From Streptosporangium sp. NPDC087985 (GTDB lineage: Bacteria; Actinomycetota; Actinomycetes; Streptosporangiales; Streptosporangiaceae), in assembly GCF_044741965.1 (NCBI RefSeq), contig NZ_JBIUTQ010000007.1, forward strand, positions 1-64,000: a stretch of 64,000 bases of DNA. The letters run 5' to 3'. The position numbers and the translations under genes were made by a program. This document shows, one piece after another, positions 141 through 21,200 of this stretch. A model generated the notes under the pieces. That model was not told where the DNA came from and searched no databases. It saw only the letters and a list, made by a program, of their open reading frames with translations. Numbering within the stretch: the stretch's first letter is position 1; each line of letters starts with the position of its first letter.

Positions 141-155
141 GATCACGCTGAATGA

Positions 156-5188: not shown

Positions 5189-5294
5189 GGGGCCGACCCT
5201 AGGGCCGTTCCGGTCTCCGCTGTCAGGGCCATTCGCCGGCGCCGTCCGTGGACCATTCGGCCCGCTGTCGGTGTGACATGTCATACTCGCCGAC

Positions 5295-8045
5295 GTGAGG
5301 TGGCAGAAGGAGCAGAGCACGCTGATCGGGCGATTGGTGGAGCTTGACCGCCTGACCACCGTGCTCGACGCGGCCGCCGACGGGCTGGCCGGGGTGGCCC
5401 TCGTGGGCGGCGACGCGGGCATGGGCAAGACCCGGCTGGTGACGGAGCTGGGGGAGCGGGCCAGGGCCGCCGGCTTCGCCGTACTGGTCGGACAGTGCGC
5501 CGAGCTCGGCGACGCGCTGCCGTACCTGCCGCTGGCGGACGCCCTGCGCGGCGTGCGGGGAGAGCTGGGCGCGGCACTCGACGCCAGGCCTGTCCTCGGC
5601 AGGCTGCTGCCCGGCGGCGCCGACCTCGGGCCGGAGACCACCTCCGGCCTCACCCAGCAGCAGCTCTTCGGGTCGATGCTCGGGTTCCTGGCCGTGCAGC
5701 CCGTGCTCCTGGTCCTGGAGGACCTGCACTGGGCCGACCAGTCCACCCGCGACCTGCTGGTCTTCCTCAGCCGGATGCTGCAGACCGAGCGCGTCTGCCT
5801 GGTCGGCACCTACCGGACCGACGACCTTCACCGCCGCCACCCGCTGCGCCGGGTCCTCGCCGAGCTCAAGCGTCTCCCCTCGGTGACAGCCGTCGAGCTG
5901 AGCCCACTCGACCGCGGCGAGATGGCCGACTACCTGGCCGCCCTCGGCGGCGACGACGCTCAGATGATCAGCGAGGTCGTCGACCGCGCCGAAGGCAACC
6001 CGTTCTACGCCGAAGAGCTGCTGGAGGCCGCCAGCGAGGGATCCTCGATGACCGACAGCCTCGTCGGCCTGCTGCTCTCCCGCGTGGAGCTGCTCTCCGA
6101 TGCCGCCCAGAGGGTGCTCCGGGGCGCGGCCGTCGCGGGCCGCCGGGTCGACCACGACCTGCTCCGCGAGGCCTCCGGTCTGGCCGAGCTGGCCTTCGAG
6201 GAGGCCATGCGGGAGATCGTCTCCCGCGGACTGCTCCGCCCCAGCGGGGAGTACGGCTACGCCTTCCGGCACGCCCTGCTCCAGGAGGCCGTCTACACCG
6301 ACCTGCTGCCGGGCGAGCGGACCCGGATGCACTCCGCGTTCGCCCGGCTGCTCACCGCCCGCAAGGGTGCCGCCGCCGAGCTCGCCTACCACTACCTGGC
6401 CGGACACGACCTCGCCGAAGCCCTGTCGGCCTCGGCCGAGGCCGGACGGCGGGCCGAGCGCCTCGGTGCCCCCGCCGAGGCCCACCGCCACTTCGAGCAG
6501 GCGCTCGGCCTCTGGGACCGGGTCCCCGAGGCCGAGCGGCTCGCCGGGATGGACCATGTCCGGCTCGCGCTGCGCACCGCCGCCGCGGCGGCCGACATGG
6601 GCGACAACCACCGGGCCGTCGCCCAGCTCCGGGAGATCCCCCCGTCGGCCGAGGCGGCCGAACGGCTTGCCTACTACCTCTACGAATACGGCGACGGTGC
6701 GGGGGCGATCGTGGCCGCCGAGGCGGCAGTGGCCGCGGCCCCTCCAGGGACCCCCGTCCTCGCCAGAGCGCTGGCCACCCTCTCCCGCACGCTCAGCTGG
6801 GGGGCGCGGCACCCGGAGGCCAGACCGCTCGCCGACCGTGCGCTGGAGGTCGCCAGGGCCACAGGGGCGAGCGACGCGGAGAAGGGTGCGATGATCATGC
6901 TGGCCTCCTGTGCGGAGTTCGAGGGCGATCTCGCCCGGGCGGAGGAGCTGTTCGGCCCTGCCGCCGCCCGGGACTCCGACGACCTGGCCATGGACCTGCG
7001 CGCGATCTTCCACTACGCCCGGATCCAGTTCGAGCGCGGTTCCATGGCCGTCGCCGCCGTGACCGCCGACCGAGGCGTACGGCTGGCGACGGAGGCCGGG
7101 CTCTCCTGGAGCACCTACGGCACCGACCTGCGGTTCCTCCAGTTCATGATCCGCTACATGGCGGGGGAGTGGGCGCAGGCCCGGGAGACGGCCGCCGGGT
7201 TCGGCACGCGGGTCGGCAAGATTCCCGAGGCAGTCCTCTCCTCCTTCGCGCTGTTCGTCGAGGTCGCCATGGGGATGCCCGTGGTCGAGGAGCGGCTGAC
7301 CTGGCTCCGGCCGTTCTGGTCGGACTCCCTGGTCGCCTACATGTCCCGGGGGCTGGCCGCCGAACACGCCCTGTGGCGTCAGGAGCCCGGGCTCGCCCTG
7401 GAGCACGCGACCGCGGTCTTCGACGCCACGGACCCCGCCGACGTGGGCAACATCCGCGTCAGCGCGATCGCGCTGTGGGCACTGGCCGATCTGGGCCGGA
7501 CCGACGGCGCCGACGAGCTGCTCGCCCGCGCGCGGACGGCGGCCCGGCCGGGAATGGGATTCGAGGGGCAGGCCTGGCTGGCGCGGGCCGAGGCCGAGTG
7601 GCACCGCGTGCACGGCCGTGCCGACGTCGAGGCGTGGCGGGCGGTGGTCGAGGCGTTCGAGGTCGGATCCGTCTACGAGGTCGCGCGTTCGCGATGGCGG
7701 CTGGCCGAGGCGCTGCTCGCCTCGGGTGACCGTGTCTCGGCGCTGAAGGAGTGGCGGCGCGCCGTCGAGGACGCCGCGTCGCTGGGCGCCCGGCCACTGA
7801 GCGCCGCCCTGGCGGAGCTGGGTCGCCGGGCCCGGTTCACCTCGAACCAGACGGGACCGCTCACCGGCAGGGAGCAGGAGGTGCTCGCGCTGGTGGCCGA
7901 GGGCCTGCCCAACCGGGAGATCGGTGAGCGGCTGTTCATCGCGCAGAAGACGGTGAGCGTGCACGTCTCCAACATCCTGGGCAAGCTCGGCGTCTCCTCC
8001 CGCACCCAGGCCGCCGCCGTGGCCCGCAGGAAGGGCCTGCTCTAA
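5295..8045 (+). CDS. LAL-family (large ATP-binding LuxR) transcriptional regulator
   Basis: 916 aa. It has an N-terminal P-loop (GGDAGMGKTRL), a long helical/TPR-like middle, and a C-terminal LuxR HTH (LTGREQEVLALVAEGLPNREIGERLFIAQKTVSVHVSNILGKLGV). Confidence 0.85.
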   Translation: MRWQKEQSTLIGRLVELDRLTTVLDAAADGLAGVALVGGDAGMGKTRLVTELGERARAAGFAVLVGQCAELGDALPYLPLADALRGVRGELGAALDARPVLGRLLPGGADLGPETTSGLTQQQLFGSMLGFLAVQPVLLVLEDLHWADQSTRDLLVFLSRMLQTERVCLVGTYRTDDLHRRHPLRRVLAELKRLPSVTAVELSPLDRGEMADYLAALGGDDAQMISEVVDRAEGNPFYAEELLEAASEGSSMTDSLVGLLLSRVELLSDAAQRVLRGAAVAGRRVDHDLLREASGLAELAFEEAMREIVSRGLLRPSGEYGYAFRHALLQEAVYTDLLPGERTRMHSAFARLLTARKGAAAELAYHYLAGHDLAEALSASAEAGRRAERLGAPAEAHRHFEQALGLWDRVPEAERLAGMDHVRLALRTAAAAADMGDNHRAVAQLREIPPSAEAAERLAYYLYEYGDGAGAIVAAEAAVAAAPPGTPVLARALATLSRTLSWGARHPEARPLADRALEVARATGASDAEKGAMIMLASCAEFEGDLARAEELFGPAAARDSDDLAMDLRAIFHYARIQFERGSMAVAAVTADRGVRLATEAGLSWSTYGTDLRFLQFMIRYMAGEWAQARETAAGFGTRVGKIPEAVLSSFALFVEVAMGMPVVEERLTWLRPFWSDSLVAYMSRGLAAEHALWRQEPGLALEHATAVFDATDPADVGNIRVSAIALWALADLGRTDGADELLARARTAARPGMGFEGQAWLARAEAEWHRVHGRADVEAWRAVVEAFEVGSVYEVARSRWRLAEALLASGDRVSALKEWRRAVEDAASLGARPLSAALAELGRRARFTSNQTGPLTGREQEVLALVAEGLPNREIGERLFIAQKTVSVHVSNILGKLGVSSRTQAAAVARRKGLL

Positions 8046-8090
8046 ACGCTTGCCGCCGTCTCGCCAGGTGAGGCTCGCGTGACCGAGACC

Positions 8091-8165
8091 TGTGCGGACG
8101 GGACCCACGCGGACAGGGCCTGCGCGGACAGGGCCTGCGCGGACAGGGCCTGCGCGGACAGCGCC
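8091..8165. repeat. 15-bp tandem repeat (gcggacagggcctgc), about 4.5 copies
   Basis: Direct reading: units at 8109-8123, 8124-8138 and 8139-8153, plus degenerate flanking units. In frame it encodes ADRAC x3 in a 29-aa GTG-initiated micro-ORF (8079..8168). Confidence 0.7.
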
Positions 8166-8587
8166 TAGCCGTCGCGTGTGGCCAGGGCCAGATCGCGGAC
8201 GACCTGGATCAGCTCGGCCGGGTCGAACGGCTTGGTGAGGTAGGCGTCGACTCCGATGTCGAGTCCCCGGCGTTTGTCGTCGTCCTGTGCCCGCGCGGTG
8301 ATCAGGACGACCCTGATGTGGCGGGTCTCCTCGGAACCCCGCAGCCTGGTGGCGGTCATCCAGCCGTCCAGCCTGGGCATCATCACGTCGAGCGTGATCA
8401 CATCGGGCATCACGTCGAGCACTCGATCAAGGCAGTTCTGCCCGTCGTAGGCGGTCTCCACCTGGAACCCCTCCAGGGTCAGGTTGACCGCGATGAGCTG
8501 CCGGATGACCTCGTCGTCATCCACGACCAATACCTTGCCCGGAACATCGCCCACGGCCGTGAGGCTAATCCCTCCCAGCCGTGTCAC
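8165..8587 (-). CDS. single-domain response regulator (REC/CheY-like receiver only)
   Basis: 140 aa. VLVVDDDEVIRQLIAVNLTLEGFQV...ITLDVMMPRLDGW...DAYLTKPFDP carries the conserved Asp pocket and the K of the receiver domain. No output domain. Confidence 0.8.
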   Translation of the reverse strand: MTRLGGISLTAVGDVPGKVLVVDDDEVIRQLIAVNLTLEGFQVETAYDGQNCLDRVLDVMPDVITLDVMMPRLDGWMTATRLRGSEETRHIRVVLITARAQDDDKRRGLDIGVDAYLTKPFDPAELIQVVRDLALATRDG

Positions 8588-8773
8588 GCGCGTTTTTCGG
8601 CGGATGCGTACGGACGGCTATCCACCGGGGACAGGTTCCCGGCGGGCCGGCGGACCTCCGTTCCTGTGGACGGTCCGGTGTCTCTCCACAGAATTCAGTT
8701 CGGCTCCTTGGGGGGCATCCCGGCCCGCGCATTCTGAGGCCTCGATCGTTCATCGAGCCCAGGGAGGGCACGC

Positions 8774-9835
8774 ATGATCACGACAGTCCTCACCGCCACC
8801 GCCTTCGTGGCGGCCCTCGCGGGGAACAGCCCCCAGGCATCCGCGGTCGGCACCTGTCCGCAGGCCGTCGATGACTGGAAGCGTCCGCTGCCTGGCACGG
8901 AGGTGCCGGACGGAGTCCGGAGGTGGTTCGACGAGTTGCCCGAGGGCGTCGGCAGGTGGTTATGGGAAGCGATGCGTACCGCGCTCACCCCCGCCTGCGA
9001 GGCCGGCCGCCCGAGCTTGGAATCCCCGCCCCCGACCATCCGCGTCGACGCCGGGGACGACACCTCCGGCCCGTACACCTCCCCGGCGGCGCAGGTTGCC
9101 GACGGCTCCGGGCTTTCCGAGCCTCCCAGGTCCGGTGCCCCCGGCATCGCCGGCTTCTCCGGTCCTTCGGGGGACGTATCCCCTGATCTCCCCGATCCTT
9201 CCGCCCCTTCGAGGGATGCGTCCCCCGACGTCACCGGTCCTTCCGCTCCTCCCGGGGATACCTCCCCCGATCTCACCGGTCCTTCCGAGGATGTCTCCCC
9301 CGACACCGCCGGTTCTTCCGGGCCCGCGTCTTCCTCGCGTGCCCGCCGGCCCGCCGTCGTCTCCCTGGATAAGCCCGCGAAACGGGAGGCGTCCCGCCCC
9401 TCGCCCACGTCATCCCGGCCACCGCGCCGCCCGTCACCGGGGCAGACGGCGGTGGCGGCGGCGCTCCGCCACGTCGGCAGGCCGTACGTCTGGGGCGGCG
9501 GGTCGGGCGCGGGACCGACCGGCGGCGGTTTCGACTGCTCCGGCCTCGCCCTGCACGCCTGGTCCAAGGCGGGGACCGCGCTCACCCACTACACCGGCAG
9601 CCAGTTCAAGCAGGGCCGCCGCGTGCCGTTCTCCCAGCTCCGCCCGGGAGACCTGGTCTTCTTCGGGGGCGGCAGCGGAGACCCCACCCACGTGGGTGTC
9701 TACGTGAAGAACGGTGTCATGGTGCACGCCCCGAAGACCGGCGACGTCGTCAGGACGACGAACTTCGCCGACTCCCCCTACTACCGCTCGCGCTACCGGG
9801 GGGCCGTCCGCCCGGGCTCCGGGCCCCTCGCCTGA
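8774..9835 (+). CDS. secreted NlpC/P60 (C40) cell-wall peptidase with Pro/Ser-rich repetitive linker
   Basis: Signal peptide MITTVLTATAFVAALAG. The repetitive linker is SGPSGDVSPDLPDPSAPSRDASPDVTGPS. The C-terminal RPYVWGGGS...GFDCSGL...HVGVYV domain carries the catalytic Cys/His of NlpC/P60. Confidence 0.85.
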   Translation: MITTVLTATAFVAALAGNSPQASAVGTCPQAVDDWKRPLPGTEVPDGVRRWFDELPEGVGRWLWEAMRTALTPACEAGRPSLESPPPTIRVDAGDDTSGPYTSPAAQVADGSGLSEPPRSGAPGIAGFSGPSGDVSPDLPDPSAPSRDASPDVTGPSAPPGDTSPDLTGPSEDVSPDTAGSSGPASSSRARRPAVVSLDKPAKREASRPSPTSSRPPRRPSPGQTAVAAALRHVGRPYVWGGGSGAGPTGGGFDCSGLALHAWSKAGTALTHYTGSQFKQGRRVPFSQLRPGDLVFFGGGSGDPTHVGVYVKNGVMVHAPKTGDVVRTTNFADSPYYRSRYRGAVRPGSGPLA

Positions 9836-9917
9836 CAGAGCCGGTGCCCCTGAGATCGCCACTTCGCGCCACGAGTGTCGGTTCCCCTCCAGATGCTGGT
9901 AATCTAAACACTCGTTG

Positions 9918-9992
9918 GCCCCCTTAGCTCAGGGGATAGAGCACCGGCCTCCGGAGCCGGGAGCGCAAGTTCGAATCTTGCAGGGGGCACCA
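9918..9992 (+). tRNA. tRNA-Arg (anticodon CCG)
   Basis: Cloverleaf read directly. Acceptor GCCCCCT/AGGGGGC. D-arm GCTC-AGGGGATA-GAGC. Anticodon stem CCGGC/GCCGG with loop CTCCGGA (anticodon CCG). T-arm GCAAG-TTCGAAT-CTTGC. Discriminator A plus encoded CCA. Confidence 0.9.
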
Positions 9993-10016
9993 ACGTTTCA
10001 CCAGGGGAAACCCAGC

Positions 10017-10042
10017 GACGACCCGCGGCAACGCGGGTCGTT
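10017..10042 (+). terminator. GC-rich hairpin just downstream of tRNA-Arg
   Basis: gacgacccgcg-gcaa-cgcgggtcgtt, 24 nt after the tRNA 3' end. Confidence 0.35.
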
Positions 10043-10134
10043 CTGCGTTCCGGGGTGCCACCGGCGTGAAAGGCAGGCGCGGCCCGGAGCGGTCGCCGAG
10101 ACGTCGATCTGGCGAGCTCCCTGCCGGGCCGGGT

Positions 10135-10944
10135 TCACGGCTCCGCCGAGCGGCGAAGGGCGGTCCTGGTGGTGTCCTCGGGATAGGGCGACAGCCGTAC
10201 GGCGTCCTGGACGTGCATCCAGCCCGCTGCCACCTCCTCGCAGAGTCCGGCGAGGGCGGCGATCTCGGCGTGCTGGGCGATGACGAACGCGCGATCCACC
10301 GGATCCCCGTGGCCGGGCACGATGACGTCGCCGTCGCCGGTGAGCCCGAGCAGGCCGTCGACGGCCGTCGGCCATTCGAGCGGGTAGGCGTCGCCGTACG
10401 CGGGCGGCGCGCCGTTCTCCACCAGGTCGCCGGCGAACACCACACCGGCGTCCGGCACGTGGACCACGAGATCGTTGCTGGAATGACCGCGGCCGAAGTG
10501 GGCCATGACGACGCGCCGCCCGCCGACGGCCAGCTCCGCCCGGTCGGTCACGAGGTGGTCCGGCAGCACGATATCCGTCTTCTCGATGTCGTCGGCGATG
10601 CCGGGGCGCCCCTCCTCCCGGTACCGCCGCGCCCAGGTGTCCTTCGTCCCGGCCCCGCCCTCGATCAGGTCGGTCCGGCAGCCCTCCTGCGCCCAGACGG
10701 CACACTCCAGGAACGGCCGCGTGCCGAAGCTGTGGTCGAAGTGCGAGTGGGTGATCACCACCGTCCACGGATCCCGGGTGATCCGCCGCACCTCCGCGGC
10801 GAGCTCCGCCCCCTGCCGCTCGTCCCCTCGCGTGTCGACCACCAGGCAGCCGCCGTCACCCATGACCAGTCCCACCGACAGGTCCAGCTCCGCATACCGC
10901 CGGACCAGCACCCGATCGGCCACTTCCATCCATCGACCTTCCAT
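10135..10944 (-). CDS. MBL-fold metallo-hydrolase (glyoxalase-II/beta-lactamase-like)
   Basis: 269 aa. The VITHSHFDHSFG (HxHxDH) zinc motif is present, plus a downstream HGD. ATG at 10944 lies 8 nt after GGAGAA. The longer 488-aa ORF is an N-terminal artefact that overlaps the kinase gene. Confidence 0.8.
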   Translation of the reverse strand: MEGRWMEVADRVLVRRYAELDLSVGLVMGDGGCLVVDTRGDERQGAELAAEVRRITRDPWTVVITHSHFDHSFGTRPFLECAVWAQEGCRTDLIEGGAGTKDTWARRYREEGRPGIADDIEKTDIVLPDHLVTDRAELAVGGRRVVMAHFGRGHSSNDLVVHVPDAGVVFAGDLVENGAPPAYGDAYPLEWPTAVDGLLGLTGDGDVIVPGHGDPVDRAFVIAQHAEIAALAGLCEEVAAGWMHVQDAVRLSPYPEDTTRTALRRSAEP

Positions 10945-11024
10945 GCACCGTATTCTCCACTGGTTGCCGTGCCGTGATCGAGTACCGGCAGGCGTGGGCC
11001 GATGTGGTCGGACGCCGGCGCGGC

Positions 11025-11918
11025 TCAGGCGAGGACGCGGCCGACCATCCGGGCGTACATCCGGCCGGGGCTGGGCACCGATGGCGGGTTGAGGAAACCG
11101 GGGAGCATCGGAAGGTCCACGGCGAAGGACTGCAGGCGCTCGTAGAGAGCGTCGGCGTCGGTGGGACGCCGGTCGGGGTCCTTCTCCAGGAGGTCTTCGA
11201 CCAGCCGGTTCAGCTCCGCGGGGACACCGGGGACGGCGGGCGGCCGTTCCTTCACCTGGCGTTCGAACACGGCGTACTCGGTGGGCCCGGTGAAGAGCTG
11301 CCTGCCCGTCAGCATCTCGTGGATCACGCAGCCGAGGGCGTAGAGGTCGCTGCGGGGGCCGGCGAGGCCACTCTGGATCTGCTCGGGGGCCATGTAGGCA
11401 GGCGTACCGAGGAGCTGGCCGACCCGGGTGAACCGGGTCGAGTCCGCCTCGCGGAGCATGGCGAGGCCGAAGTCCAGGACCTTGACGCTGCCGTCGGGGC
11501 AGAGCATCAGGTTGGTCGGCTTGAGGTCGCGGTGGTAGATGGACAGCGCGTGGGCGGCTGACAGCACCGCACACGCTTGGGCGGCGATCGCGGCCGCCCA
11601 CGGGACCGGGAGCGGGCCGTGCTCGCTGACCAGGTCGGCCACGGTGACGCCCTCGATGAACTGCATCACCTGGAAGAGCCGCTGGTCGGAGGTGCCGAAG
11701 TCGTAAAGGACCGGCGCGCCGGGGTGCTCCAGCTTCGCCAGAATGCGCGCTTCGCGGAGGAAACGCCGGTTCAGTTCCTCGTCCGGGCCGCTGAGCAGGC
11801 GCAGGAACTTGACGGCCACCTTGCGGTCGAGGTGCTTGTCGTGGCCGGCGTAGACGGCACCCATGCCGCCCTGGGCGAGGGGGAGGTCATCGAGCACGTA
11901 CCGGTCGCCGATGACCAT
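11025..11918 (-). CDS. minimal Ser/Thr protein kinase (Hanks-type catalytic domain only)
   Basis: 297 aa. It has a Gly-rich loop LAQGGMGAVYAG, VAVK, the catalytic loop HRDLKPTNLML, DFG, and APE (AYMAPE). There is no TM, PASTA, FHA or other accessory domain. RBS GGGGAGGG is present. Confidence 0.85.
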   Translation of the reverse strand: MVIGDRYVLDDLPLAQGGMGAVYAGHDKHLDRKVAVKFLRLLSGPDEELNRRFLREARILAKLEHPGAPVLYDFGTSDQRLFQVMQFIEGVTVADLVSEHGPLPVPWAAAIAAQACAVLSAAHALSIYHRDLKPTNLMLCPDGSVKVLDFGLAMLREADSTRFTRVGQLLGTPAYMAPEQIQSGLAGPRSDLYALGCVIHEMLTGRQLFTGPTEYAVFERQVKERPPAVPGVPAELNRLVEDLLEKDPDRRPTDADALYERLQSFAVDLPMLPGFLNPPSVPSPGRMYARMVGRVLA

Positions 11919-11945
11919 CCGACCCTCCCCTGGACGTGGCGGGAA

Positions 11946-13844
11946 TCAAACCCTTTGGTCGCATGGCCGGAGGTGGCCGTCAACCAGTCCGTCAAAGCCT
12001 AGCCGGATCAGCGTTTCTCCCAGCGCCGTCGTCTCGCGTACCCGGTCCTCCAGTGCGAACAGCTCACGGAAGGCCGTGCCGTACCGCCGCTGGTCGGCGA
12101 GGGGCAGCATCGGCACCCGCGACCGCCGCACGTCGAGGCGGCTGGAGCCGGGGTGGATACGGGCCGCGTCGGCGGAGCGGAGAAAGCCGGCCAGGAAGTC
12201 GGGGTCGAGCCGTTGCGGGTCCACGCGGTAGAGCGTGAGCTGCGGGCCGAGCGCCGCTCCGCTCCGGGTGATCACCCGGACCACGCCCAGGGTGGTGGTC
12301 ACGACGTCCCCAGGTCTGATCATGACCAGTGCGGGGTCGAGGACGGTCCGTCCCGACGGGGGCGTGCCCAGGGCGATGTCGTCGGCGGTCAGGACCGGGA
12401 GCGGGCCTTCGCCGGCCGTCATCTTGGATGGGGCCTGCAGGATGGTGAGCAGGGCGGCCTTGGCCAGCTCGCCGACGGTGGTGGTCGGCAGGTCCTGCCG
12501 TTCGGTGAGCAGCTCAAGTGCCGGAGGGGCCTCCGGCAGCGTGGCCGAGGTGTCGCGGAAGCGGTCCAGCGCGTCGGTGAAGTCGCGCAGGAAGTCGGGG
12601 CCGCCCAGCTGCGGGCGGTGCCGGGCCGGGCTGAGGTCCACCTCGTCGTCGAGCAGGTCGATGATCCGGACGGTACGGCTGTCGCCGGACGGCTCGGCCT
12701 CCGGGTCGCACGTGTAGGCACGCCAGGCGGGTTCCACGGCCGACAGGTCCTCGCTCGCGTCCATTATCAGAATCCGGGAGGGAGGGCGCCTTCCGTCGGG
12801 GCGGCGCAGGATCCACAGATCGGGACCGCCCGGGCCCAGCGTCACCACGGCCCGTAGCGCCCCGGTGCGCAGCAGGTTGCCCCGGATACGCTTGCCGGGA
12901 CGGCGGCCGGCCGCCGCGGCCGGCATCAGGATCGTCACCAGGCCACCCGGCCTCACGTGGGCCAGACAGTGCTGTACCCAGGCAAGCTCGGGCTCCCCGC
13001 GGGGCGGCAGGCCGTACTCCCACCGGGGATCGCCGGTCAGCTCCTCGTAGCCCCATGCGCGCTCGTTGAACGGCGGGTCGCAGACCACGGCGTCGGCGAG
13101 CTCGCCGGCCAGGCCGTCCTCGCGCAGCGAGTCGCCCGCGACGACCCGCGCCCGGGTCCCGCGCAGCAACAACCGGACCGCGGTGAGCAGCGCGTTGGTC
13201 TCGTTGGTCTCCTGGCCGAGCGGGGTGCCGGCGTGCAGGAGGAGGGTGCCGACGCCGCAGGCCGGATCGAGGACGGTCCCCCCCTCCTGGCCGGCCAGGA
13301 GGGACATGAGCGCGGCCACGTCGTCCCTGGTCACCGAGAGCTGGCGGGAGTGAGCCTCCACGTAGCGCTCGCAGAGGAACTCGAAGGTGTCCAGCGGGCC
13401 ACGCTCGGCGGCCAGTTCGGCCACCAGCCTGACGAGCGCGAGGTCGTCCAGCCGCAGATCGGGGGAGCTGGGAAGGTCCGTCGTCGCGGCGGCCAGACCG
13501 GCGAGGGACCGGGTGCCGTGTTTCCGCCACGTCTCCGGTTCCCGGTGGAGGAACAGCAGGAACGCGCCGACCCTGCCCACCAGGTCACCCAGGCGCAGGT
13601 CGTCGACCGAGGTCCGCAGCCGCTGCCAGACCAGGTCGCCGAGGGAGACCTCGAACGACTTGCCGTGGCGGCGCAACCACGCGGCGATCTCGGGCAGGGA
13701 GAACAGCGGGCTGGAGGCCGTACCCCCCGTGGGCTGGGGAAAGTCATCGTGGCGGCGGCGCCAGTTGCTCACCGCGGCGCGGCCGACAGAGGCGAGCCGG
13801 GCGATGTCGCCCGCGTTCACCGTGATGTCCTGGCTCTCCTCCAT
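11946..13844 (-). CDS. single-chain HTH + N6-adenine DNA methyltransferase + HsdS-like target-recognition domain protein
   Basis: 632 aa. The N-terminus DIARLASVGRAAVSNWRRRHDDFPQP is a MerR/excisionase-type HTH. MTase motif I is DPACGVGTLLL and motif IV is VVCDPPFN (DPPF, amino-MTase). The C-terminal ~250 aa has the HsdS TRD pattern (TLYRVDPQRLDPDFLAGFL...GSSRLDVRRSRVPMLPLADQRRYGTAFRE). It stops 27 bp before the kinase start. Confidence 0.8.
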   Translation of the reverse strand: MEESQDITVNAGDIARLASVGRAAVSNWRRRHDDFPQPTGGTASSPLFSLPEIAAWLRRHGKSFEVSLGDLVWQRLRTSVDDLRLGDLVGRVGAFLLFLHREPETWRKHGTRSLAGLAAATTDLPSSPDLRLDDLALVRLVAELAAERGPLDTFEFLCERYVEAHSRQLSVTRDDVAALMSLLAGQEGGTVLDPACGVGTLLLHAGTPLGQETNETNALLTAVRLLLRGTRARVVAGDSLREDGLAGELADAVVCDPPFNERAWGYEELTGDPRWEYGLPPRGEPELAWVQHCLAHVRPGGLVTILMPAAAAGRRPGKRIRGNLLRTGALRAVVTLGPGGPDLWILRRPDGRRPPSRILIMDASEDLSAVEPAWRAYTCDPEAEPSGDSRTVRIIDLLDDEVDLSPARHRPQLGGPDFLRDFTDALDRFRDTSATLPEAPPALELLTERQDLPTTTVGELAKAALLTILQAPSKMTAGEGPLPVLTADDIALGTPPSGRTVLDPALVMIRPGDVVTTTLGVVRVITRSGAALGPQLTLYRVDPQRLDPDFLAGFLRSADAARIHPGSSRLDVRRSRVPMLPLADQRRYGTAFRELFALEDRVRETTALGETLIRLGFDGLVDGHLRPCDQRV

Positions 13845-13928
13845 ACTGGGCCACAGTAGTTGACTGTGCCTTAACGGTCTACAACATGTTTGCTTGTGAA
13901 GTGCTTCAACCAATGCTTTACTGCCTTC

Positions 13929-14726
13929 ATGGCACTGAACGAAGGATTGGCACTGCGCTACGCGGCCCGCTCCGACGTAGGCGTCCGCCGCGAGGCGAAC
14001 GAGGACTCGGGCTACGCGAGCGCGCGTCTGCTCGCCATAGCCGACGGCATGGGTGGTCACGCGGGTGGAGAGGTCGCCAGCTCGCTTGCCGCCACCGCCA
14101 TGGCGGCCCTGGACGACAGCCTTCCGGCCAGCGGTGTCGACCTGGTCGCCGCCCTGAAAGGCGCGGCGAGGGACGTCAACCACACGCTGCACGACATGAG
14201 TGAGCAGGACCCCGCGTTACGCGGGATGGGCACCACCCTGACCGCCATGCTGTGGGACGGCGCCGCCTTCGCCCTTGCCCACGTCGGCGACTCCCGCGCC
14301 TACATGCTGCGCGGCGGTGCCCTCTACCAGATCACCCATGACCACACTCTGGTCCAGTCGCTGGTGGACGAGGGCCGCATCACCCCGGAGCAGGCCGCCG
14401 AGCATCCGCGCCGGTCCATGGTGCTGCGGGTCCTTGAGGGCACCGGTGACGGTGAGCTGGACCTCTCCCTGCGCGAGGCCCAGCCGGACGACCGCTACCT
14501 TCTCTGCTCCGACGGCCTGACCGGGGTGGTCGGCCCGGAGACCCTGTTCAACACGCTGACCGAAATCGCCGACCCCGACGAGGCCGCCCGGTGGCTCATC
14601 GACCTGGCCAACCGGGGCGGCGGTCCCGACAACATCACCTGCATCGTGGCCGACTTCGGGGCCCACGCCGTCTCCGCTGAGCGGTTCCTCGTAGGCGCCG
14701 TGGTCGAGCGGAAACTGACCCCCTGA
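13929..14726 (+). CDS. PP2C-family Ser/Thr protein phosphatase
   Basis: RYAARSDVGVRREANED...LLAIADGMGGHAGGEVAS...DGLTG...GGPDNITCIVADF carries the PPM metal-binding aspartates. It is divergent from the MTase. An alternative ATG start at 13890 exists. Confidence 0.85.
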   Translation: MALNEGLALRYAARSDVGVRREANEDSGYASARLLAIADGMGGHAGGEVASSLAATAMAALDDSLPASGVDLVAALKGAARDVNHTLHDMSEQDPALRGMGTTLTAMLWDGAAFALAHVGDSRAYMLRGGALYQITHDHTLVQSLVDEGRITPEQAAEHPRRSMVLRVLEGTGDGELDLSLREAQPDDRYLLCSDGLTGVVGPETLFNTLTEIADPDEAARWLIDLANRGGGPDNITCIVADFGAHAVSAERFLVGAVVERKLTP

Positions 14727-14762: not shown

Positions 14763-15593
14763 TTACCAGGTCTTGCCAGTGATGCGCTCGTACGCCTCGA
14801 TGTAGCGGGCCCGGGTGACCTCCACGACCTCGGCGGGCACCTCCGGGGCGGGCTCCTTCTTGTCCCAGCCCGTGCCGGTCGCCCAGTCGCGGACATACTG
14901 CTTGTCGAACGAGAACTGCGCGTGACCGGGCTCCCACCGGTCGGCGGGCCAGAACCGCGAGGAGTCGGAGGTCAGCACCTCGTCGCCGAGCACGAGCGTG
15001 CCGTCGTCGGCCCAGCCCAGCTCGATCTTGGTGTCGGCGATGATGACGCCCCGCTCCGCGGCGAGCTCGGATCCCCGCCGGTAGATCTCCAGCGTGATCC
15101 GCCGCAGCTCCTCGGCGACCCCCACGCCTTCCAGGGAGACCACGTCGTCGAAGGCGATGGGCTCGTCGTGCTGCCCGAGCGGCGCCTTGGTGGACGGGGT
15201 GAAGATCGGCTCGGGGAGCCTGGAGCCGTCCACCAGGCCGGGGGGCAGCGGCACGCCCGAGACCGTCCCGTGCGCCTGGTACTCCTTCAGGCCCCCGCCG
15301 GTCAGGTAGCCGCGCGCGACGCATTCGACCTGCACCATCTTCAGCTTCCGGCACCGTACGGCGCGGCCCGCGAACTCGGCGGGCACGTCGGTGGCGGAGA
15401 TGACGTGGTTGGGGACGATGTCGGCGAGCTGCTCGAACCACCACAGGGAGAGCTGGGTGAGGATCTTCCCCTTGTCGGGGATGGGCGTGGGCAGGATCAC
15501 GTCGTAGACCGACACGCGGTCGGAGGCCACGAGGATGATGTCCCCGCGGTCCTCGTAGACGTCACGGACCTTCCCTGAATGAAGAAGCTTCAC
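14763..15593 (-). CDS. purC: phosphoribosylaminoimidazole-succinocarboxamide synthase (SAICAR synthetase)
   Basis: 276 aa. MKLLHSGKVRDVYE...IIADTKIELG...LTSDSSRFW is the canonical PurC signature. Confidence 0.9.
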   Translation of the reverse strand: MKLLHSGKVRDVYEDRGDIILVASDRVSVYDVILPTPIPDKGKILTQLSLWWFEQLADIVPNHVISATDVPAEFAGRAVRCRKLKMVQVECVARGYLTGGGLKEYQAHGTVSGVPLPPGLVDGSRLPEPIFTPSTKAPLGQHDEPIAFDDVVSLEGVGVAEELRRITLEIYRRGSELAAERGVIIADTKIELGWADDGTLVLGDEVLTSDSSRFWPADRWEPGHAQFSFDKQYVRDWATGTGWDKKEPAPEVPAEVVEVTRARYIEAYERITGKTW

Positions 15594-15736: not shown

Positions 15737-17437
15737 TCACGGGCGCCTGCGGGCTCGCAGGATGGCGTCGTGGATGGTGACCTCACGGCCTTCGGGGTCG
15801 CCGGCGGGGCGCGGTCTGGTGTCGGTGACGAGGACGTCCCACTGGTCGGGGGCGAGGGAGTGCGCGACCTCCTCGGCGGTGAAGAACATGTCGGGTATCG
15901 GTGTGCGGGGCATCGTGGTCTCCAGGTCCGAGATGTGGTGGCCGACGATGAGCAGGGTGCCGCCGGGGGCCACCGTGGTGGCCAGCCGGGCGAACAGCGC
16001 TTGGCGCTGGATCCCCGGCAGGTGCATGAAATGGGCGGAGACCAGGTCGAAAGGGCCTCCATCGGGTGTCCAGGCGGTCAGGTCGGCGTGTACCCAGCTG
16101 ATCCGCCCGGCCACGTCGGCGCCGAGGGCGTCGGCCTGTTCGGCGCCGCGCCGCAGGGCGGTAGTGGAGAAATCCACCGCCGTGACCCGCCAGCCGCGTG
16201 AGGCGAGCCAGAGGGCGTCGGCCCCTTCGCCGCAACCGACGTCGAGCGCCGTGCCGGGGGGCAGGTCGGTGGTCTCGGCCACGAGCTGGGGATTGGGGCG
16301 ACCGCTCCAGATCGCGGTGCGGGAACGGTAGCGCTGCTCCCATGCCTGCTCGCTGAACATGCTCTCGGTCGGGGCGTCGCGGTCGGCGTGCTGGTGGGCA
16401 CCCGGTGGCGTCGCGGTGGCAGGGCCACGGTGGTGGTCGCCGGGCACCCGCTCGGCATGGCCGGAGAGGGGCTCGGGCCTGCGGCGGTGAGCGGCCACGG
16501 CGTGGCGGGTGTCCTCGGCGATGAGGTCGGTGTTGATGGCCGCGGCGGTGTTCAGTGCCGAGGCGGCGGCGACGATCACCTGGGCGCGCAGGTCCGCGAC
16601 GTTGCCGGCCACCCACACCCCGGCCACCGAGGTGGCCCCGGTGGGATCGGCGGGCACGTGGCTGCCGATGACGTGGTCGCCGACCAGCTGCGGGGTCGGC
16701 TCCAGCCCGAGGGAGGCGAGCACGTCGGCCCGGGCGGTGAAGCGCGGCGCGACCACCACGGCCTGGCAGGGGACGAGCCGCCCTGAACGCATCCGGATGC
16801 CGCTGAGCCGGTCGTCGGTCGTCTCCACGGCGGTGACCTCGCCCTCCACGAGCGTGACGCCCCGGGCGACGAGCTGCTCGTACTCCTCATCGGTGGGTTT
16901 GGAAGCGGTGTGCAGGAACAGGGTCACCCGCGCGCTCCACTGCCGGAACAGCAGGGCCTGGTGCGCGGCCAGCGGGCTGTCGGCCAGGATGCCGATCGCC
17001 TGGTCGCGTACCTCCCAGCCGTGGCAGTACGGGCAGTGCAGGACGTCGCGCCCCCACCGTTCGGCCAGTCCGGGGACGTCGGGCAGCTCGTCCACCAGAC
17101 CGGTGGTCACCAGCAGCCGCCGTGCCCGCACCGTTCGGCCGTCGGCGAGCAGCACGCGAAAGCCACCCTCCCCCTCGTCCAGGGGGTGGGCCGAGGTGAC
17201 GGTGCCGGTCACGATCTCACCGCCGTAGCCGGTCACCTCGGCGCGGCCGGCGGCCAGCAACTCGCCGGGGGGCGTGCCCTCGCGGCCCAGGTAGTTGTGC
17301 ACATGCCCGGCCGGGGCGTTGCGCGGGGCGCCGGCGTCGACCACCAGCACCGAGCGGCGCGCCCGGCTCAGTGCCAGGGCCCCGCTGAGCCCGGCCGCAC
17401 CACCACCGACGACCACCACGTCGTACTTCTCCTCCAC
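15737..17437 (-). CDS. in-frame fusion: FAD/NAD(P)-dependent oxidoreductase (thioredoxin-reductase-like) + class I SAM-dependent methyltransferase
   Basis: GTG start at 17437 lies 7 nt after AGGAGA. KYDVVVVGGGAAGLSGALALSR is a Rossmann FAD motif. A ~50-aa low-complexity linker follows. The MTase module MFSEQAWEQRYRSRTAIWSGRPNPQLV...LDVGCGEGADALWLA begins at an internal ATG (16360). No stop codon separates the two modules. Confidence 0.7.
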   Translation of the reverse strand: MEEKYDVVVVGGGAAGLSGALALSRARRSVLVVDAGAPRNAPAGHVHNYLGREGTPPGELLAAGRAEVTGYGGEIVTGTVTSAHPLDEGEGGFRVLLADGRTVRARRLLVTTGLVDELPDVPGLAERWGRDVLHCPYCHGWEVRDQAIGILADSPLAAHQALLFRQWSARVTLFLHTASKPTDEEYEQLVARGVTLVEGEVTAVETTDDRLSGIRMRSGRLVPCQAVVVAPRFTARADVLASLGLEPTPQLVGDHVIGSHVPADPTGATSVAGVWVAGNVADLRAQVIVAAASALNTAAAINTDLIAEDTRHAVAAHRRRPEPLSGHAERVPGDHHRGPATATPPGAHQHADRDAPTESMFSEQAWEQRYRSRTAIWSGRPNPQLVAETTDLPPGTALDVGCGEGADALWLASRGWRVTAVDFSTTALRRGAEQADALGADVAGRISWVHADLTAWTPDGGPFDLVSAHFMHLPGIQRQALFARLATTVAPGGTLLIVGHHISDLETTMPRTPIPDMFFTAEEVAHSLAPDQWDVLVTDTRPRPAGDPEGREVTIHDAILRARRRP

Positions 17438-17531: not shown

Positions 17532-18167
17532 ATGGTGTTGCCAGGATGGCAAATAGGTGGGGTGAACGACGACGCTCCCGCCCTCGCCGGCGCTCTCGAC
17601 GATGTCATGGACGCCGTGGGCCCGCGCCTGAGAGTCCTGCGCCAGCAGCGCGGCGCGACCCTGGCGCAGCTCTCCGGGGCCACCGGGATCTCGGTCAGCA
17701 CCCTGTCCCGCCTGGAGTCCGGCCAGCGCAAGCCCACCCTGGAGCTTCTGCTCCTGCTGGCCCGAGTCCACCAGCTCCCCCTGGACGAGCTCGTCGGCGC
17801 GCCGGCGACCGGCGACCCGCGCGTCCACCAGCGCCCGATCATCCGCAACGGCACGACGTTCATCCCGCTGACCCGCCGGCCCGGCGGGCTCCAGGCCTAC
17901 AAGATGGTCATCCCGGCGCGCTGGCCCGCGTGCGGGCCGGAACAGCGGGTCCACGAGGGGTACGAGTGGATTTACGTCCTATCCGGGCGACTGAGCCTGT
18001 TGCTCGGCGAGAAAGAGATCGTCCTGACACACGGAGAGGTGGCGGAGTTCGACACCCACATCCCGCACGCGTTCAGCAACCCCTACCCGGAGCCCGCCGA
18101 AGTCCTCAGCCTGTTCGGACCCCAGGGCGAACGCCTGCACGTCCGCGCCCGCCCCTCCAACAGGTGA
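17532..18167 (+). CDS. XRE-family HTH regulator with C-terminal cupin domain
   Basis: LRVLRQQRGATLAQLSGATGISVSTLSRLESGQRKPTLELLLLLARV is an HTH_3 fold. The C-terminal YEWIYVLSGRLSLLLGEKEIVLTHGEVAEFDTHIPH is a cupin_2 fold. It is divergent from the oxidoreductase-MTase gene. Alternative starts at 17562 and 17607. Confidence 0.75.
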   Translation: MVLPGWQIGGVNDDAPALAGALDDVMDAVGPRLRVLRQQRGATLAQLSGATGISVSTLSRLESGQRKPTLELLLLLARVHQLPLDELVGAPATGDPRVHQRPIIRNGTTFIPLTRRPGGLQAYKMVIPARWPACGPEQRVHEGYEWIYVLSGRLSLLLGEKEIVLTHGEVAEFDTHIPHAFSNPYPEPAEVLSLFGPQGERLHVRARPSNR

Positions 18168-18234: not shown

Positions 18235-21200
18235 TCACGGCTCGGGGGAGAGGCGGTCGGCGGCGTGTTCGATGGCGGTGCTCACCCGGTCGGCCAGCAG
18301 GCCGACCGCGCCGACCGCACGGGTCACCGGGTCGTCCTCGGCGCCGCCGAGTGCCTTCTCACGCAGGTAGGCCGCCTTCACCTCGGCCCACCGGGCGGCC
18401 TGCCCGGCCGTCATGGTCCCCCGCAGCTCGGCCAGCTTGAGCAGGTTCGCCTCGGCGCCGGAGGTGAGGGTCCGGGCCTCGCCGAGGTAGTGGTCGTCGA
18501 TCAGAGCCTCCAGTTCGGCGTCGTTCATGACCGGGACGATCCTGGCGGCGAGCTTGTTCATGTTCCGGTAGGACCCCTGGAGCTGGAACGGCGGTTCGGT
18601 CCTGGACGCGTCGGACTGGGCGGCCGAGGCGATGTAGGCCCGGTTGCCCGCCAGTACCACCTGCTGGACGCGGAGCAGCCCCCGCAGGACCGGGAGCATC
18701 TCGTCGAGCTCCGCGGCGGAGTACGGGTGGGAGAGCCGGTCGGCCCGGACGGTGGGGTCGCCCTGTGCCAGCCGTACCAGGAGACGGATGTCACCGCGGT
18801 CCCGCGTGGACAGCGGGGCGAGGAACGGGTTGGAGGTGAGCGCGTTGTCGATGTAGCTCAGCGCGAACAGCTCCTCCTTGCCGGACAGCACCTCGCCCAG
18901 GTTCCACACGTCGGCACGGTTGGCGAGCATGTCGGGGATGCGGAACCGCCTGCCGGACTCGGTGTACGGATTGCCCGCCATGCAGACCGCGAAGCGCTTG
19001 CCACGCAGGTCGTAGGTGCGGGTCTCGCCCTCCCAGACACCCTCCATCTGCCGCTGGCCGTCGCACAGCGAGATGAACTTCTGCAGTAGTTCGGGGGAGG
19101 TGTGCTGGATGTCGTCGAGGTAGAGCAGCACGTTGTTGCCCATCTCCAGGGCGAACGAGATCTTCTCGACCTCCTGGCGGGCCGTCGCGTCGGGCGCCCG
19201 CGCCGGGTCCACCGAGGTGACCAGATGCCCCAGGGCGGGGCCGTTGACCTTCACCAGCATCAGACCGAGCCGGCTGGCGACGTACTCCATGAGGGTGGTC
19301 TTGCCGTAGCCGGGCGGTGAGATGAGCAGCAGCATGCCCATCTGGTCGGTCCGCTTGGCGTCGCCGGCCGCGCCGATCTGCTTGGCCAGGTTGTCACCGA
19401 TGAGCGGGAGGTAGACCTCGTCGAGGAGCTCGTTGCGGACGAAGGCGCTCATCACCTTCGGCCGGTACTCCTCCAGGCGCAGCCGCGTCCGTTCCGCGGC
19501 GACCAGGTCGTTGCGCCGCCTCTGGTAGGCGCGGTAGGCGGGGACGAGGTGCTCGCGGAAGTGCCGGGTCCGGCTGAGGAACTCGTCCAGGCGCAGGTCG
19601 AGCCCGCGTCCGGAGATCCGCGGGTGCGTGCCGAGCAGGTCCTCGACCGTGGTGGTCAGGGGCACCGAGGAGTCGTGCCGGGTCACCTCGCACAGCAGTA
19701 CGGCCACCGCCTCCGGCAGCTCGGCCGGTGACTCGAACGCGCCGAGCCACGCCTCGGCCAGCCGGTGGCGCCCGGCCAGGTCGTCCTTGAGCGCCCGCAG
19801 ATCGTCGTCGAACTCCTGGCGTGCCGTCCCCAGCGCCCGGTCGAACCGTTCCAGCAGCGACCGTGCCCCCGCGCTCGTCACGAACCCGGACGGCTCGCCG
19901 GCCAGTTCCTCGAAGAGGTATTCCCCGGCGAGCGTGCAGACGTCCTCGCTGTCCCGCCCGTCCGGACGCCCCGCATCGCCGGGTGCCCGGGCTGCCCGGC
20001 CGTTCCCGGCGGGGGTGCCGTCCGCGGTGCCGCTGAGAGCGGCCATGAAGGTCGTGATGGCGGAGCCGAGCGCGCCGCGGATCTCATCCACCGCGTCGAC
20101 CCGGCCGAACAGGGCGCGTGCCCGTGCCAGCGAGACCACCCGGGTGGTCCACGCCCCGCGAGCGGCCTCGTCCACGCCGAAGGTCCAGAAGAGCTGGGCC
20201 GCCGCCCTCGCCGCGGGGGGATAGCGCAGCAGGCCGGCGCCCGCGTGCAGCCGCAGCAGGGCGTTGAGGATGGCGGCCGCGTCGTGGTCGTGCACGCCCC
20301 GCTCGTAACCCTCGTCGTAACGGGTCTGCGCCACCGGGCGGACGATCTCCAGCAGGCTGCCTCCGTCCGCCGCCGCGCGCAGCGCGTCGAGCGTGACGGC
20401 CGATCCGCCCACGCTCAGCGTGCCGGCCTCGGCGGCGGCCAGGATGGAGGCGGCCAGGTGCTCGCCCCGGTAGACCTCGGCCGTCTCGGAGACCAGCGAC
20501 TGGTTCCAGAACGGCTGGGTCTCGGCGAACGCCTCGTCGCGCACCGGCGAGCGGTAGTCGGTCCCGGTCACGGCGAACGCCAGCCGGTCTCCGTGCGGCA
20601 CCAGCGTGAGGTCGGCGGCCTGGGTGTTGACCGCGAACCGGTGCCGGCCCAGGCGGATCGTCTCGCCGCCGTCGGTGTACAGGTCGAGCCGGTCGCGCAG
20701 GGCGCGGCCCGCCTCCTGACGGGCGGACTTGATCCGGCCTTCGAGCTCCTCGGCCCGGACCTGGTCGCCCAGCGCGCGCAGCTCCCCGGTCACACCGTGC
20801 AGCTTGACGACCATCGGGTCGGAGCCGAAGTAGGTGTTGACCTCGTCGAGCGATCCGAGCCCGGCCGCACGGCGGCGCACGCTGGACAGGATCCGGGTGG
20901 CGGAGTCGGCCAGCCGGTCGGCCCTGCGGGCGCGCTCGTCCAGCAGCGCCTGCCGCCGCGCGGAGAACACCTCGTAGACGTCCTCCCGCTTGGCCGCCAG
21001 CTGGGCCAGGAAGTCGTCGAACTCGGCGAAGCGTGACTCCAGGCCTTCCATCTGGAGCATCAGCCGGCCGAGCTGCTCGTCGCAGCGTTCGGGGGTGTCG
21101 GCCATCGCCAGAGCCCCGGTGATCGACTGTCCCAGCAGTGCGAACTCGGCCGCGAACGCCGCCCGTCCCTCGCTCGCCAGCAGTTCCCCGCGCCGCGCGT

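Follow-up and report, generated by a model that had tools for sequence, protein, structure and literature searches.

The orphan gamma-class adenine DNA methyltransferase (MTase) CamA provides a precedent for a developmental role of such an enzyme. MTases with a helix-turn-helix (HTH) domain that regulate their own genes, such as M.SsoII and M.EcoRII, and the C-protein control of restriction-modification (R-M), as by C.PvuII, are also well known. Among defence systems, DISARM comprises the helicase DrmA, the DUF1998/MZB protein DrmB, the PLD nuclease DrmC and, in class 1, an N6-adenine MTase. MADS is an eight-gene operon, mad1-8, of which MAD6, MAD7 and MAD8 are mandatory (bioRxiv 10.1101/2023.03.30.534895). 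In this study, we analysed the first 64,000 nucleotides of contig NZ_JBIUTQ010000007.1 of Streptosporangium sp. NPDC087985 (this whole stretch is called the window), in which the gene of a PP2C phosphatase stands divergently beside that of an HTH-bearing MTase, which is followed by the gene of a minimal Hanks-type Ser/Thr kinase. We propose, with a probability of roughly one half, that this trio is a domesticated orphan adenine MTase that regulates its own expression and is controlled through reversible phosphorylation on Ser/Thr, a proposal which, like every functional statement below, draws on sequence, structure prediction and comparative genomics.

The composition of the unit was read from its conservation. 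A one-genome-per-species scan gave 392 relatives, and the best 80 loci were examined with 10-kb flanks each: 31 from Streptosporangium, 9 from Planomonospora/Planobispora, 15 from Sphaerisporangium, 19 from Nonomuraea and the others from several single-species genera. As these are the best 80 of 392 matches, a family-wide occurrence is well supported and universality would go beyond it. A divergent PP2C gene lies beside the MTase gene in all 80 species loci, which cover at least ten genera of the Streptosporangiaceae, and the kinase gene follows immediately 3′ of the MTase gene in 79 of them, the exception being L051. When open reading frames (ORFs) were compared one by one, PP2C, MTase and kinase were the only genes common to all loci, the flanks being kept within a genus only. 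The kinase is the most conserved of the three (75-95% identity over the loci, against 57-90% for the MTase and 59-94% for PP2C). Each species has one trio locus and identities drop with taxonomic distance, as predicted for vertical descent. The same trio is found in two members of the Pseudonocardiaceae, Allokutzneria and Sciscionella, and in five metagenomic loci. On these comparative grounds we take the real unit to be the three genes PP2C, MTase and kinase. A preliminary description of this DNA had instead proposed a four-gene cluster that includes a metallo-β-lactamase (MBL)-fold hydrolase. Its genes, domains and gaps of 27 bp (MTase to kinase) and 80 bp (kinase to MBL) are all present by ORF and Pfam analysis, and the co-conservation that it assumed holds for PP2C and the kinase with the MTase, whereas the MBL gene is a companion in Streptosporangium only.

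The MTase, which is 100% identical to the N-6 DNA methylase of Streptosporangium sp. NPDC087985, is best described as a DNA-type gamma amino-MTase with its own target recognition domain (TRD), an assignment made from motifs, profiles and predicted folds. Its PDB sequence match is PacII M at 4e-20, and the full-length AF2 model (pLDDT 79) gave Foldseek matches to PacII M, HsdM, the Type IIG enzyme BpuSI, CamA and M.BseCI. The HsdM-type core also matches EcoR124/EcoKI M by sequence and fold, and the alignment with BpuSI spans the MTase and TRD parts only. These hits, with the N6_Mtase profile, are those of a DNA-type enzyme, as had been supposed. The profile of the C-terminal 195 aa aligns with both TRDs of each of the HsdS chains 5ybb_D and 3okg_A (E = 5e-8), and the PADLOC model Specificity_I matches the MTase at 2e-3; judged by these profiles, the fused HsdS-like TRD that the preliminary description had read from the translation is real. 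The same holds for its MerR/excisionase-like HTH. The N-terminal 66 residues, modelled alone, gave an AF2 pLDDT of 86 and Foldseek matches, at TM ~0.6 and weak E-values, to the DNA-binding domains of CarA/CarH, BmrR, MtaN, BldC and small terminases. Pfam matched no family in the N-terminal 77 aa, and the PADLOC model mad1 matched this domain weakly (5e-4). The predicted fold identifies the N-terminus as a MerR/excisionase-type winged HTH of ~60 aa, not a PD-(D/E)XK nuclease.

The HTH is the best-conserved MTase domain between clades (53-74% identity), and within the trio clade the TRD and the catalytic core are equally well conserved. DPPF is intact in 116 of the 120 trio-clade MTases, where motifs I and IV are canonical. 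The features of an orphan adenine MTase are thus found together, with methylation as the predicted activity: S-adenosylmethionine-binding and DPPF motifs, an own TRD, no nuclease and a family-wide distribution. No cognate nuclease was found by tblastn in the window or in the 80 trio loci, in agreement with the preliminary description. Because the TRD is conserved and not hypervariable, we infer one fixed methylated motif.

The kinase and the phosphatase both have, as read from their translations, intact motifs: Gly-loop, VAVK, HRDLKPTN, DFG and APE in the kinase, and NEDS, DGMGGH, DGL and DN in PP2C. Each is a catalytic domain only, as had been noted for the kinase, which has no sensor, transmembrane, TPR or PASTA domain and is probably co-transcribed with the MTase gene that ends 27 bp upstream of it. 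In the NCBIfam collection, PP2C scored 216 bits with the Stp1/IreP model (cut-off 230) and the kinase 260 bits with the PknB-type (Stk1) model (cut-off 450). A PADLOC search, which the preliminary description had suggested, gave partial matches to the models of mad1 and mad2 in the MTase and of mad6 (221 bits, 1e-65) in the kinase, a strong kinase match to PD-T4-6 (PDLC04042, 317 bits), and none for the MBL hydrolase. However, 35 kinase models with no curated threshold matched this kinase, so that even the strong PD-T4-6 scores are not discriminating.

The self-regulation that we propose is suggested by the DNA between the two divergent transcription units. The PP2C ATG at 13929 is kept in every genus and is most likely the start, by this comparison, rather than the TTG at 13890, which makes the divergent intergenic region 84 bp long. 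This spacer has exactly the same length in Streptosporangium, Planomonospora and Planobispora and is ~58 bp in Nonomuraea. Its core, CAGTAAA[TG]CA[TC]TGGTTGA..ACTTCACAAGCA, is near-invariant among the 71 distinct sequences aligned, although the proteins are only ~60% identical between genera. Hexamers resembling -35 and -10 elements were seen by eye 6-9 nt from each ATG, and the divergent mRNAs are, from this spacing, probably leaderless or provided with very short leaders. A terminator scan of 9.8-14.9 kb gave no match, and Rfam found nothing in the intergenic region.

Within this region lies an operator-like element, TTGAAGCACTTCACAAG, which occurs once in the window. The inverted-repeat tool gave no pairs in the intergenic region at seed 6, because the copy in the window is a degenerate palindrome, and the element was established by comparison instead. 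At the same position, more distant trios have perfect or near-perfect palindromes: the Sciscionella trio has CCACTTGTGAA-TCGTG-TTCACAAGTGG, with 11-bp arms, the Allokutzneria trio TGTGAA-GTCAG-TTCACA, and a metagenomic trio CTTGTGAAC-TGA-GTTCACAAG. The consensus TGTGAA-N5-TTCACA, with at most one mismatch, was found 19 times in 175 loci, against 0-2 times in shuffled sequence, and the matches listed were all in promoter regions adjoining MTase genes. It was also found at a Sinosporangium MTase paralogue (L089) that has neither kinase nor PP2C. Among the 175 loci, the repeat was not found in those of the DISARM or Streptomyces types described below, and autoregulation by way of this particular site would therefore be confined to the trio clade and its closest relatives. 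Since the MTase is the sole protein common to the repeat loci and the HTH is its best-conserved domain, binding of the operator by the MTase itself is the simplest explanation. A CRP-like factor is a possible binder as well, the half-sites resembling TGTGA/TCACA. A perfect TGTGAATGTCATTCACA palindrome was also seen at 12242-12258 of the Acrocarpospora locus L084, ~100 bp upstream of an SMC/LmuB/mad3-like ATPase gene in a cluster of Type I R-M and MTase-kinase genes, which suggests that the same operator may govern a neighbouring defence gene there.

The trio belongs to a wider family of MTase-kinase pairs. A search of 1.84 billion cluster representatives gave 443 relatives at E ≤1e-30, many of them full-length at 40-55% identity. 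The trio MTases of Allokutzneria and Sciscionella are 58% and 53% identical to that of the window (48% by BLASTP for the latter), and the Allokutzneria kinase is 81% identical. In Kribbella (MTase 50%, 48% by BLASTP) and Marinactinospora (44%, 41% by BLASTP), the order is drmA-like helicase, MZB protein, PLD protein, MTase, kinase-TPR and UvrD, and the Kribbella locus matched the PADLOC models of DrmA, DrmB and DrmC with 970, 232 and 320 bits, respectively. The Acrocarpospora pair (MTase 55%, 53% by BLASTP) is a kinase-TPR type set among Type I R-M, YgjP and SMC-like ATPase genes. That of Spirillospora (51%, 45% by BLASTP) stands with Wadjet-like, UvrD-like, DrmD-like SNF2 and MmeI-like genes. 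On one metagenome contig an MTase-kinase pair (MTase 46%) lies beside purF-purM, and solitary MTases (25-51%) are found in Sinosporangium and on Streptomyces and Dietzia plasmids. The catalytic domain of the trio kinase is 60% identical to that of the paralogue-adjacent kinase in Kribbella, 56% in Marinactinospora, 50% in Acrocarpospora and 35% in Spirillospora; these values indicate that MTase and kinase co-evolve as a pair. The defence-type kinases have an extra TPR tail of ~210 aa, which the trio kinase does not.

In a neighbour-joining tree, a rough one without support values, all PP2C-linked MTases formed a single clade among the paralogues. Of 51 metagenomic family members with enough flanking sequence, 34 had an adjacent kinase and 7 were of DISARM type; a divergent PP2C was found in 10, five with the kinase and five without. 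The loci with divergent PP2C, operator and MTase and with no kinase within 2-8 kb downstream are L051, L101, L103, L115, L161 and L163; in L101, the gene 3′ of the MTase encodes an HTH_31 + DUF5753 regulator. The DISARM variant drmA-drmB-drmC-(HTH-MTase)-(kinase-TPR)-UvrD occupies positions 1-11580 of the Kribbella locus (L085) and 1-13872 of the Marinactinospora locus (L086), and it was also seen in about seven or eight loci from soil metagenomes (L090-L093, L108, L110 and L150). By gene order and profile, these MTase-kinase paralogues are genuine parts of DISARM and other defence islands, which bears out the link to defence made in the preliminary description. A corollary of the more tentative reading given further below is that the Ser/Thr kinases may be regulatory subunits, so far unrecognised, of a DISARM subtype; the literature searched gave no description of DISARM with a kinase among its components. 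In tblastn searches with Kribbella DrmA, DrmB and DrmC, Spirillospora DrmD and UvrD as queries, no homologue of DrmA-D, UvrD or TPR turned up in the window, and none in the 80 trio loci at distances of up to 10 kb from the MTase. A phage origin was rejected, as viral contigs had HTH-like fragments only and no full-length MTase homologue. Plasmid records held only distant kinase-less MTase paralogues (25-41% identity), besides one mislabelled Nonomuraea chromosome.

A parallel locus exists in Streptomyces. In ~12 metagenomic loci and in S. pratensis, the order is mfd ... GmrSD_C, DUF4352, MTase (~700 aa), a 243-aa membrane protein and kinase-TPR (518 aa), continuing with SurA_N, MazG, P450, two Rpf genes and eno. 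The S. pratensis copy spans 5842-13433 of L175, L129 is similar, and the 243-aa membrane protein is proline-rich. Its MTase and kinase are 41% and 47% identical to those of the window. The top 120 homologues of this MTase are nearly all labelled Streptomyces, the rest being Kitasatospora or unlabelled, and the Streptomyces MTases are a sister clade fixed in the chromosome of the whole genus. If eno is SCO3096, as we take it to be, a count of genes from there would make SCO3104 the MTase and SCO3102 (PkaE) the kinase, both of which are our assumptions. Sco3104 is one of three candidate amino-MTases of S. coelicolor and a candidate N4mC MTase (PMC6765204), and PkaE of Streptomyces influences sporulation as well as the production of antibiotics and has FtsZ among its substrates (PMC9823044). 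We treat these reports as leads and not as evidence on the window.

The proposed module can be written as PP2C <-> [HTH-adenine-MTase-TRD -> minimal Hanks kinase], with two transcription units sharing one divergent promoter and operator. It would be an offshoot of an actinobacterial MTase-kinase pair that, in other lineages, provides defence islands of the DISARM type and of other types with their modification or regulatory part. In the lineage of the window, the helicase and nuclease partners and the TPR tail would have disappeared, PP2C would have been recruited, and the unit would have become fixed in the core chromosome of the Streptosporangiaceae. The single-chain MTase would methylate adenine in one fixed motif read by its own TRD, and its MerR/excisionase-type HTH would bind the TGTGAA-N5-TTCACA-type operator, with TTCACAAG in the 84-bp intergenic DNA as the proposed site, and so autoregulate both units. 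The sensor-less kinase, made from the same mRNA, would phosphorylate the MTase and/or a few other targets, and PP2C would reverse this. Methylation, or the DNA binding of the MTase, would then be a reversible, signal-dependent state with an epigenetic or regulatory output and not a restriction one. More tentatively, a mycelial sporulating family, with a parallel clade in Streptomyces, might have domesticated a DISARM-type MTase-kinase module into a core epigenetic switch, in which the MTase represses its own promoter and couples signalling to genome-wide methylation, for example in development or stress.

Several observations weigh against this proposal. In some members of the trio clade, motif IV begins with a residue other than D (HPPF in 4 of 120; EPPF in Allokutzneria), the sister clade in Streptomyces has HPPF in 120/120 proteins, and Kribbella has a degenerate DPTV; judged by these motifs, methyl transfer may not be a conserved activity everywhere. 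The single-molecule real-time (SMRT) methylome of S. coelicolor was without N6-methyladenine (6mA) and had only partial N4-methylcytosine at two motifs (PMC6765204). In a search for phosphosites in the MTase, the putative target of the kinase, no Ser/Thr column separated kinase-linked from kinase-less MTases (58 vs 16 sequences), and PP2C and MTase stand without the kinase in L051 and five metagenome loci. A strict sigma-70 consensus scan of 9.8-14.9 kb was empty, the promoter hexamers being below its threshold. Finally, the family-wide conservation lowers the probability of a defence role but not to zero, and the kinase matches the PADLOC PD-T4-6 and mad6 models strongly.

One alternative is that the trio works by itself in anti-phage defence or abortive infection. 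In this view, the MTase marks self DNA, senses unmodified foreign DNA and activates the kinase, the kinase halts infection by phosphorylating proteins of the host or the phage, in the manner of Stk2 and the PD-T4-6 kinases, and PP2C is the antidote and reset. Close paralogues do sit in DISARM and other defence islands, the kinase and MTase have the PADLOC matches given above (PD-T4-6 and mad6 for the kinase; mad2 and, weakly, mad1 for the MTase), and triads of a kinase, a PP2C and a third gene are known as defence systems (TerY-P). However, the PD-T4-6 models match Hanks kinases generally (35 families), and the NCBIfam scores for MAD2, MAD6 and PglW are far under the cut-offs. The trio is family-wide, at one locus per species, with identity falling with taxonomic distance, its TRD is conserved rather than hypervariable, its composition is native, its flanks are ordinary metabolic genes, and no nuclease or helicase effector is nearby. 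The viral and plasmid records, with no full-length viral homologue and with plasmid relatives that are distant and kinase-less, also speak against it. A defensive trio of this kind is in our view unlikely.

A second alternative, which we likewise hold to be improbable, takes the kinase and PP2C as a general cytoplasmic signalling pair, with for example division or development targets, and the MTase-like protein as mainly a DNA-binding regulator or scaffold in which methylation is secondary or lost. It would fit the kinase being better conserved than the MTase, the HTH being the most conserved MTase domain, the replacement of the motif IV D by H, E, T or A in relatives, with H fixed in the Streptomyces clade, and the lack of detected 6mA in S. 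coelicolor (PMC6765204). The effects of PkaE on antibiotic production, sporulation and FtsZ (PMC9823044) would fit as well, if PkaE is the kinase of the Streptomyces module. In the clade of the window, however, motifs I and IV are canonical in 116 of 120 proteins, and the catalytic core and TRD are under clear constraint, which is hard to square with a pure scaffold.

The four-gene, tRNA-associated island of the preliminary description, with the MBL hydrolase as a nuclease or phosphodiesterase effector, is very improbable. In the window, the MBL gene does follow the kinase gene at 80 bp on the same strand, with HxHxDH intact. However, it is near the trio in Streptosporangium only (29 of 31 loci; absent in all other genera), and the gap that separates it from the kinase gene there varies between 73 and 7556 bp and holds inserted genes for two-component systems, transporters and oxidoreductases. 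The hydrolase has no PADLOC match, and among the NCBIfam models it is matched best by SoxH-like and B1-lactamase-like hydrolases rather than by nucleases; as an effector it was ruled out by the neighbourhood data together with the missing defence-model match. Adjacency of the trio to purC is limited to the same genus. No tRNA was found in nine other Streptosporangiaceae loci of the same neighbourhood type, among them that of the nearest relative, which is 90% identical (14 loci were scanned overall), so that the tRNA-Arg neighbour is unique to the NPDC087985 genome among the loci scanned. With no tRNA in relatives and a left flank unique to this genome, tRNA-Arg as an island boundary was ruled out. 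There is no integrase among the annotated ORFs of the window, and the GC content of the cluster (0.69-0.74) is like that of the remainder. Conserved TRD, family-wide occurrence and native composition all argue against a typical mobile defence island. On this comparative evidence, the MBL hydrolase, tRNA-Arg and purC are incidental neighbours. Chance adjacency of unrelated genes, for which nothing speaks beyond the abundance of kinases and PP2Cs in actinomycetes, can be dismissed, as 79-80 of 80 species keep the order, the orientation and the intergenic sequence between differing flanks, and the same pairing recurs in distant clades.

Table 1. Features of the trio and its immediate neighbours in the 64-kb window, with the basis of each assignment
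Feature	Position	Strand	Basis or remark
tRNA-Arg(CCG)	9918-9992	+	Rfam scan of region: sole match
MBL-fold hydrolase, 269 aa	10135-10944	-	Lactamase_B 5e-18 (Pfam); HxHxDH
Hanks-type Ser/Thr kinase, 297 aa	11025-11918	-	Pkinase 2e-46 (Pfam)
HTH-N6_MTase-TRD methyltransferase, 632 aa	11946-13844	-	N6_Mtase 1e-22 (Pfam)
MTase residues ~498-618, predicted single HsdS-like TRD and C-terminal helices	11991..12353	-	C-terminal profile
MTase residues 152-337, gamma-class amino-methyltransferase core	12834..13391	-	motif I DPACGVG, motif IV DPPF
MTase residues 1-62, predicted MerR/excisionase-type winged HTH	13659..13844	-	AF2 + Foldseek
Divergent promoter region PP2C/MTase, 84 bp	13845..13928	.	alignment across genera
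Operator-like element TTGAAGCACTTCACAAG	13893..13909	.	degenerate inverted repeat TGTGAA-N5-TTCACA
PP2C phosphatase, 265 aa	13929-14726	+	PP2C_2 9e-13, PP2C 2e-11 (Pfam)
purC	14763-15593	-	SAICAR_synt 2e-70 (Pfam)

The surroundings of the trio were also inspected. A 488-aa ORF at 10135-11601 (-) that covers the MBL gene and extends into the kinase gene is an artefact of high GC; the conserved MBL protein has the ATG at 10944 as its start. Besides tRNA-Arg, the left flank (1-10000) encodes a LuxR-type regulator of 916 aa (5295-8045), a response regulator (8165-8587) and an NlpC/P60 protein (8774-9835). None of the 80 related loci, 31 of them from Streptosporangium species, has an equivalent of this flank, and synteny in the NPDC087985 genome therefore breaks off just past the MBL gene. 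On the other side, a pyridine-nucleotide-disulphide oxidoreductase fused to a class I methyltransferase (TehB/TPMT-like) is encoded at 15737-17263 (-), adjoined by an XRE-HTH + cupin regulator at 17532-18167 (+); of the 31 Streptosporangium loci, only 3 have this pair near the trio. An operon-like run at 18235-25946 (-) follows, with a 1687-aa DUF3686 'DNA repair ATPase' + DUF7902 + AAA protein, a 684-aa SPFH/Band_7 protein and a 198-aa family-less protein, and it had zero PADLOC matches. After it comes a second PP2C gene (26416-27381, -), whose product is 57% identical to the trio PP2C. In Planomonospora/Planobispora, the DUF3686 gene is convergent with the trio PP2C gene, with 3′ ends ~20-180 bp apart (~940 bp in L011); in Streptosporangium, purC and other genes lie between the two.

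If the proposal is true, the trio would be a rare bacterial example of DNA methylation controlled by reversible phosphorylation on Ser/Thr, and a clear one of a defence part, the DISARM-type MTase-kinase pair, turned into a conserved housekeeping regulator. The DISARM variant with kinase and UvrD and the genus-wide Streptomyces locus are of note for the fields of phage defence and Streptomyces development, respectively. Moreover, the host genera include antibiotic producers that are hard to engineer (Nonomuraea, Microbispora and Planobispora), and knowledge of a conserved methylation system could aid their genetic manipulation.

In comparison with known defence systems, the trio is closest to DISARM. 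The nearest non-trio relatives of its MTase (41-48% by BLASTP over ~99% of the length) and of its kinase (56-60%) have their genes right behind drmA-drmB-drmC in Kribbella, Marinactinospora and seven or eight metagenomic loci, where the MTase is presumably the enzyme that marks self DNA, and the best PADLOC model for the MTase of the window, PDLC03037, is the same as for the MTases of DISARM loci. In contrast to DISARM, the trio is without DrmA-D, its kinase is without the TPR tail, PP2C is added, and its distribution is family-wide rather than patchy. The preliminary description had named Pgl/BREX-2 as the only well-known pairing of a Ser/Thr kinase with an adenine MTase; the DISARM-embedded paralogues are closer analogues of the trio. 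Pgl/BREX-2 does pair a Hanks kinase with an adenine MTase in actinomycetes; however, the trio proteins are three to four times smaller, and their MTase has an HTH + HsdM-like core + HsdS-like TRD architecture. The NCBIfam PglW model gave 49 bits against a cut-off of 990, and there was no PglX, PglY or PglZ match among the four proteins. MADS likewise combines mad1, which is an HTH protein, with the N6 MTase mad2 and the kinase mad6, the PADLOC values in the window being 5e-4, 8e-19 and 1e-65, respectively. In contrast, the NCBIfam scores are 27 against 720 for MAD2 and 134 against 460 for MAD6, and mad3, 4, 5, 7 and 8 are absent beside the trio. With Type I R-M, the trio shares the HsdM-type MTase core and the HsdS-type TRD, but it has a single fused TRD, no separate HsdS with two TRDs and no HsdR/ResIII gene in the locus. 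The Type IIG/IIL enzymes differ in that no nuclease domain is fused to the MTase-TRD chain of the trio, with which the BpuSI fold otherwise aligns. Membership in DISARM, MADS, BREX-2/Pgl, Type I R-M and Type IIG was therefore rejected, a defining feature being absent in each case. The trio is not a classical restriction system.

The likenesses to regulatory systems are of another kind. In contrast to CamA, M.BseCI and BpuSI, the trio MTase has an extra N-terminal MerR-type HTH and is coupled to a kinase and a phosphatase. The Streptomyces mfd-eno locus has the same MTase family, a co-evolving kinase and genus-wide chromosomal fixation; it differs in HPPF in 120/120 proteins, in a kinase that keeps its TPR tail, in a membrane protein instead of PP2C and in having no TGTGAA-N5-TTCACA palindrome. 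The Stk1/Stp1 (PknB/PstP) systems also pair a Hanks kinase with a PP2C, but the trio kinase has no transmembrane or PASTA domain, both proteins score below the cut-offs, and the neighbour is an MTase gene and not a cell-wall or division operon. Literature searches, whose coverage was incomplete, returned no MTase-kinase-PP2C module and no methylomes of the host genera. The logic that we propose for the promoter resembles that of the HTH-MTases and C-proteins, in which an HTH is tied to an MTase gene with a palindromic operator in its own promoter, except that the trio HTH is of the MerR/excisionase type, its binding being predicted, and that the operator also serves a divergent phosphatase gene. 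By analogy, the trio would work most like an orphan gamma-class adenine MTase of CamA-like architecture joined to a switch of the Stk/Stp type.

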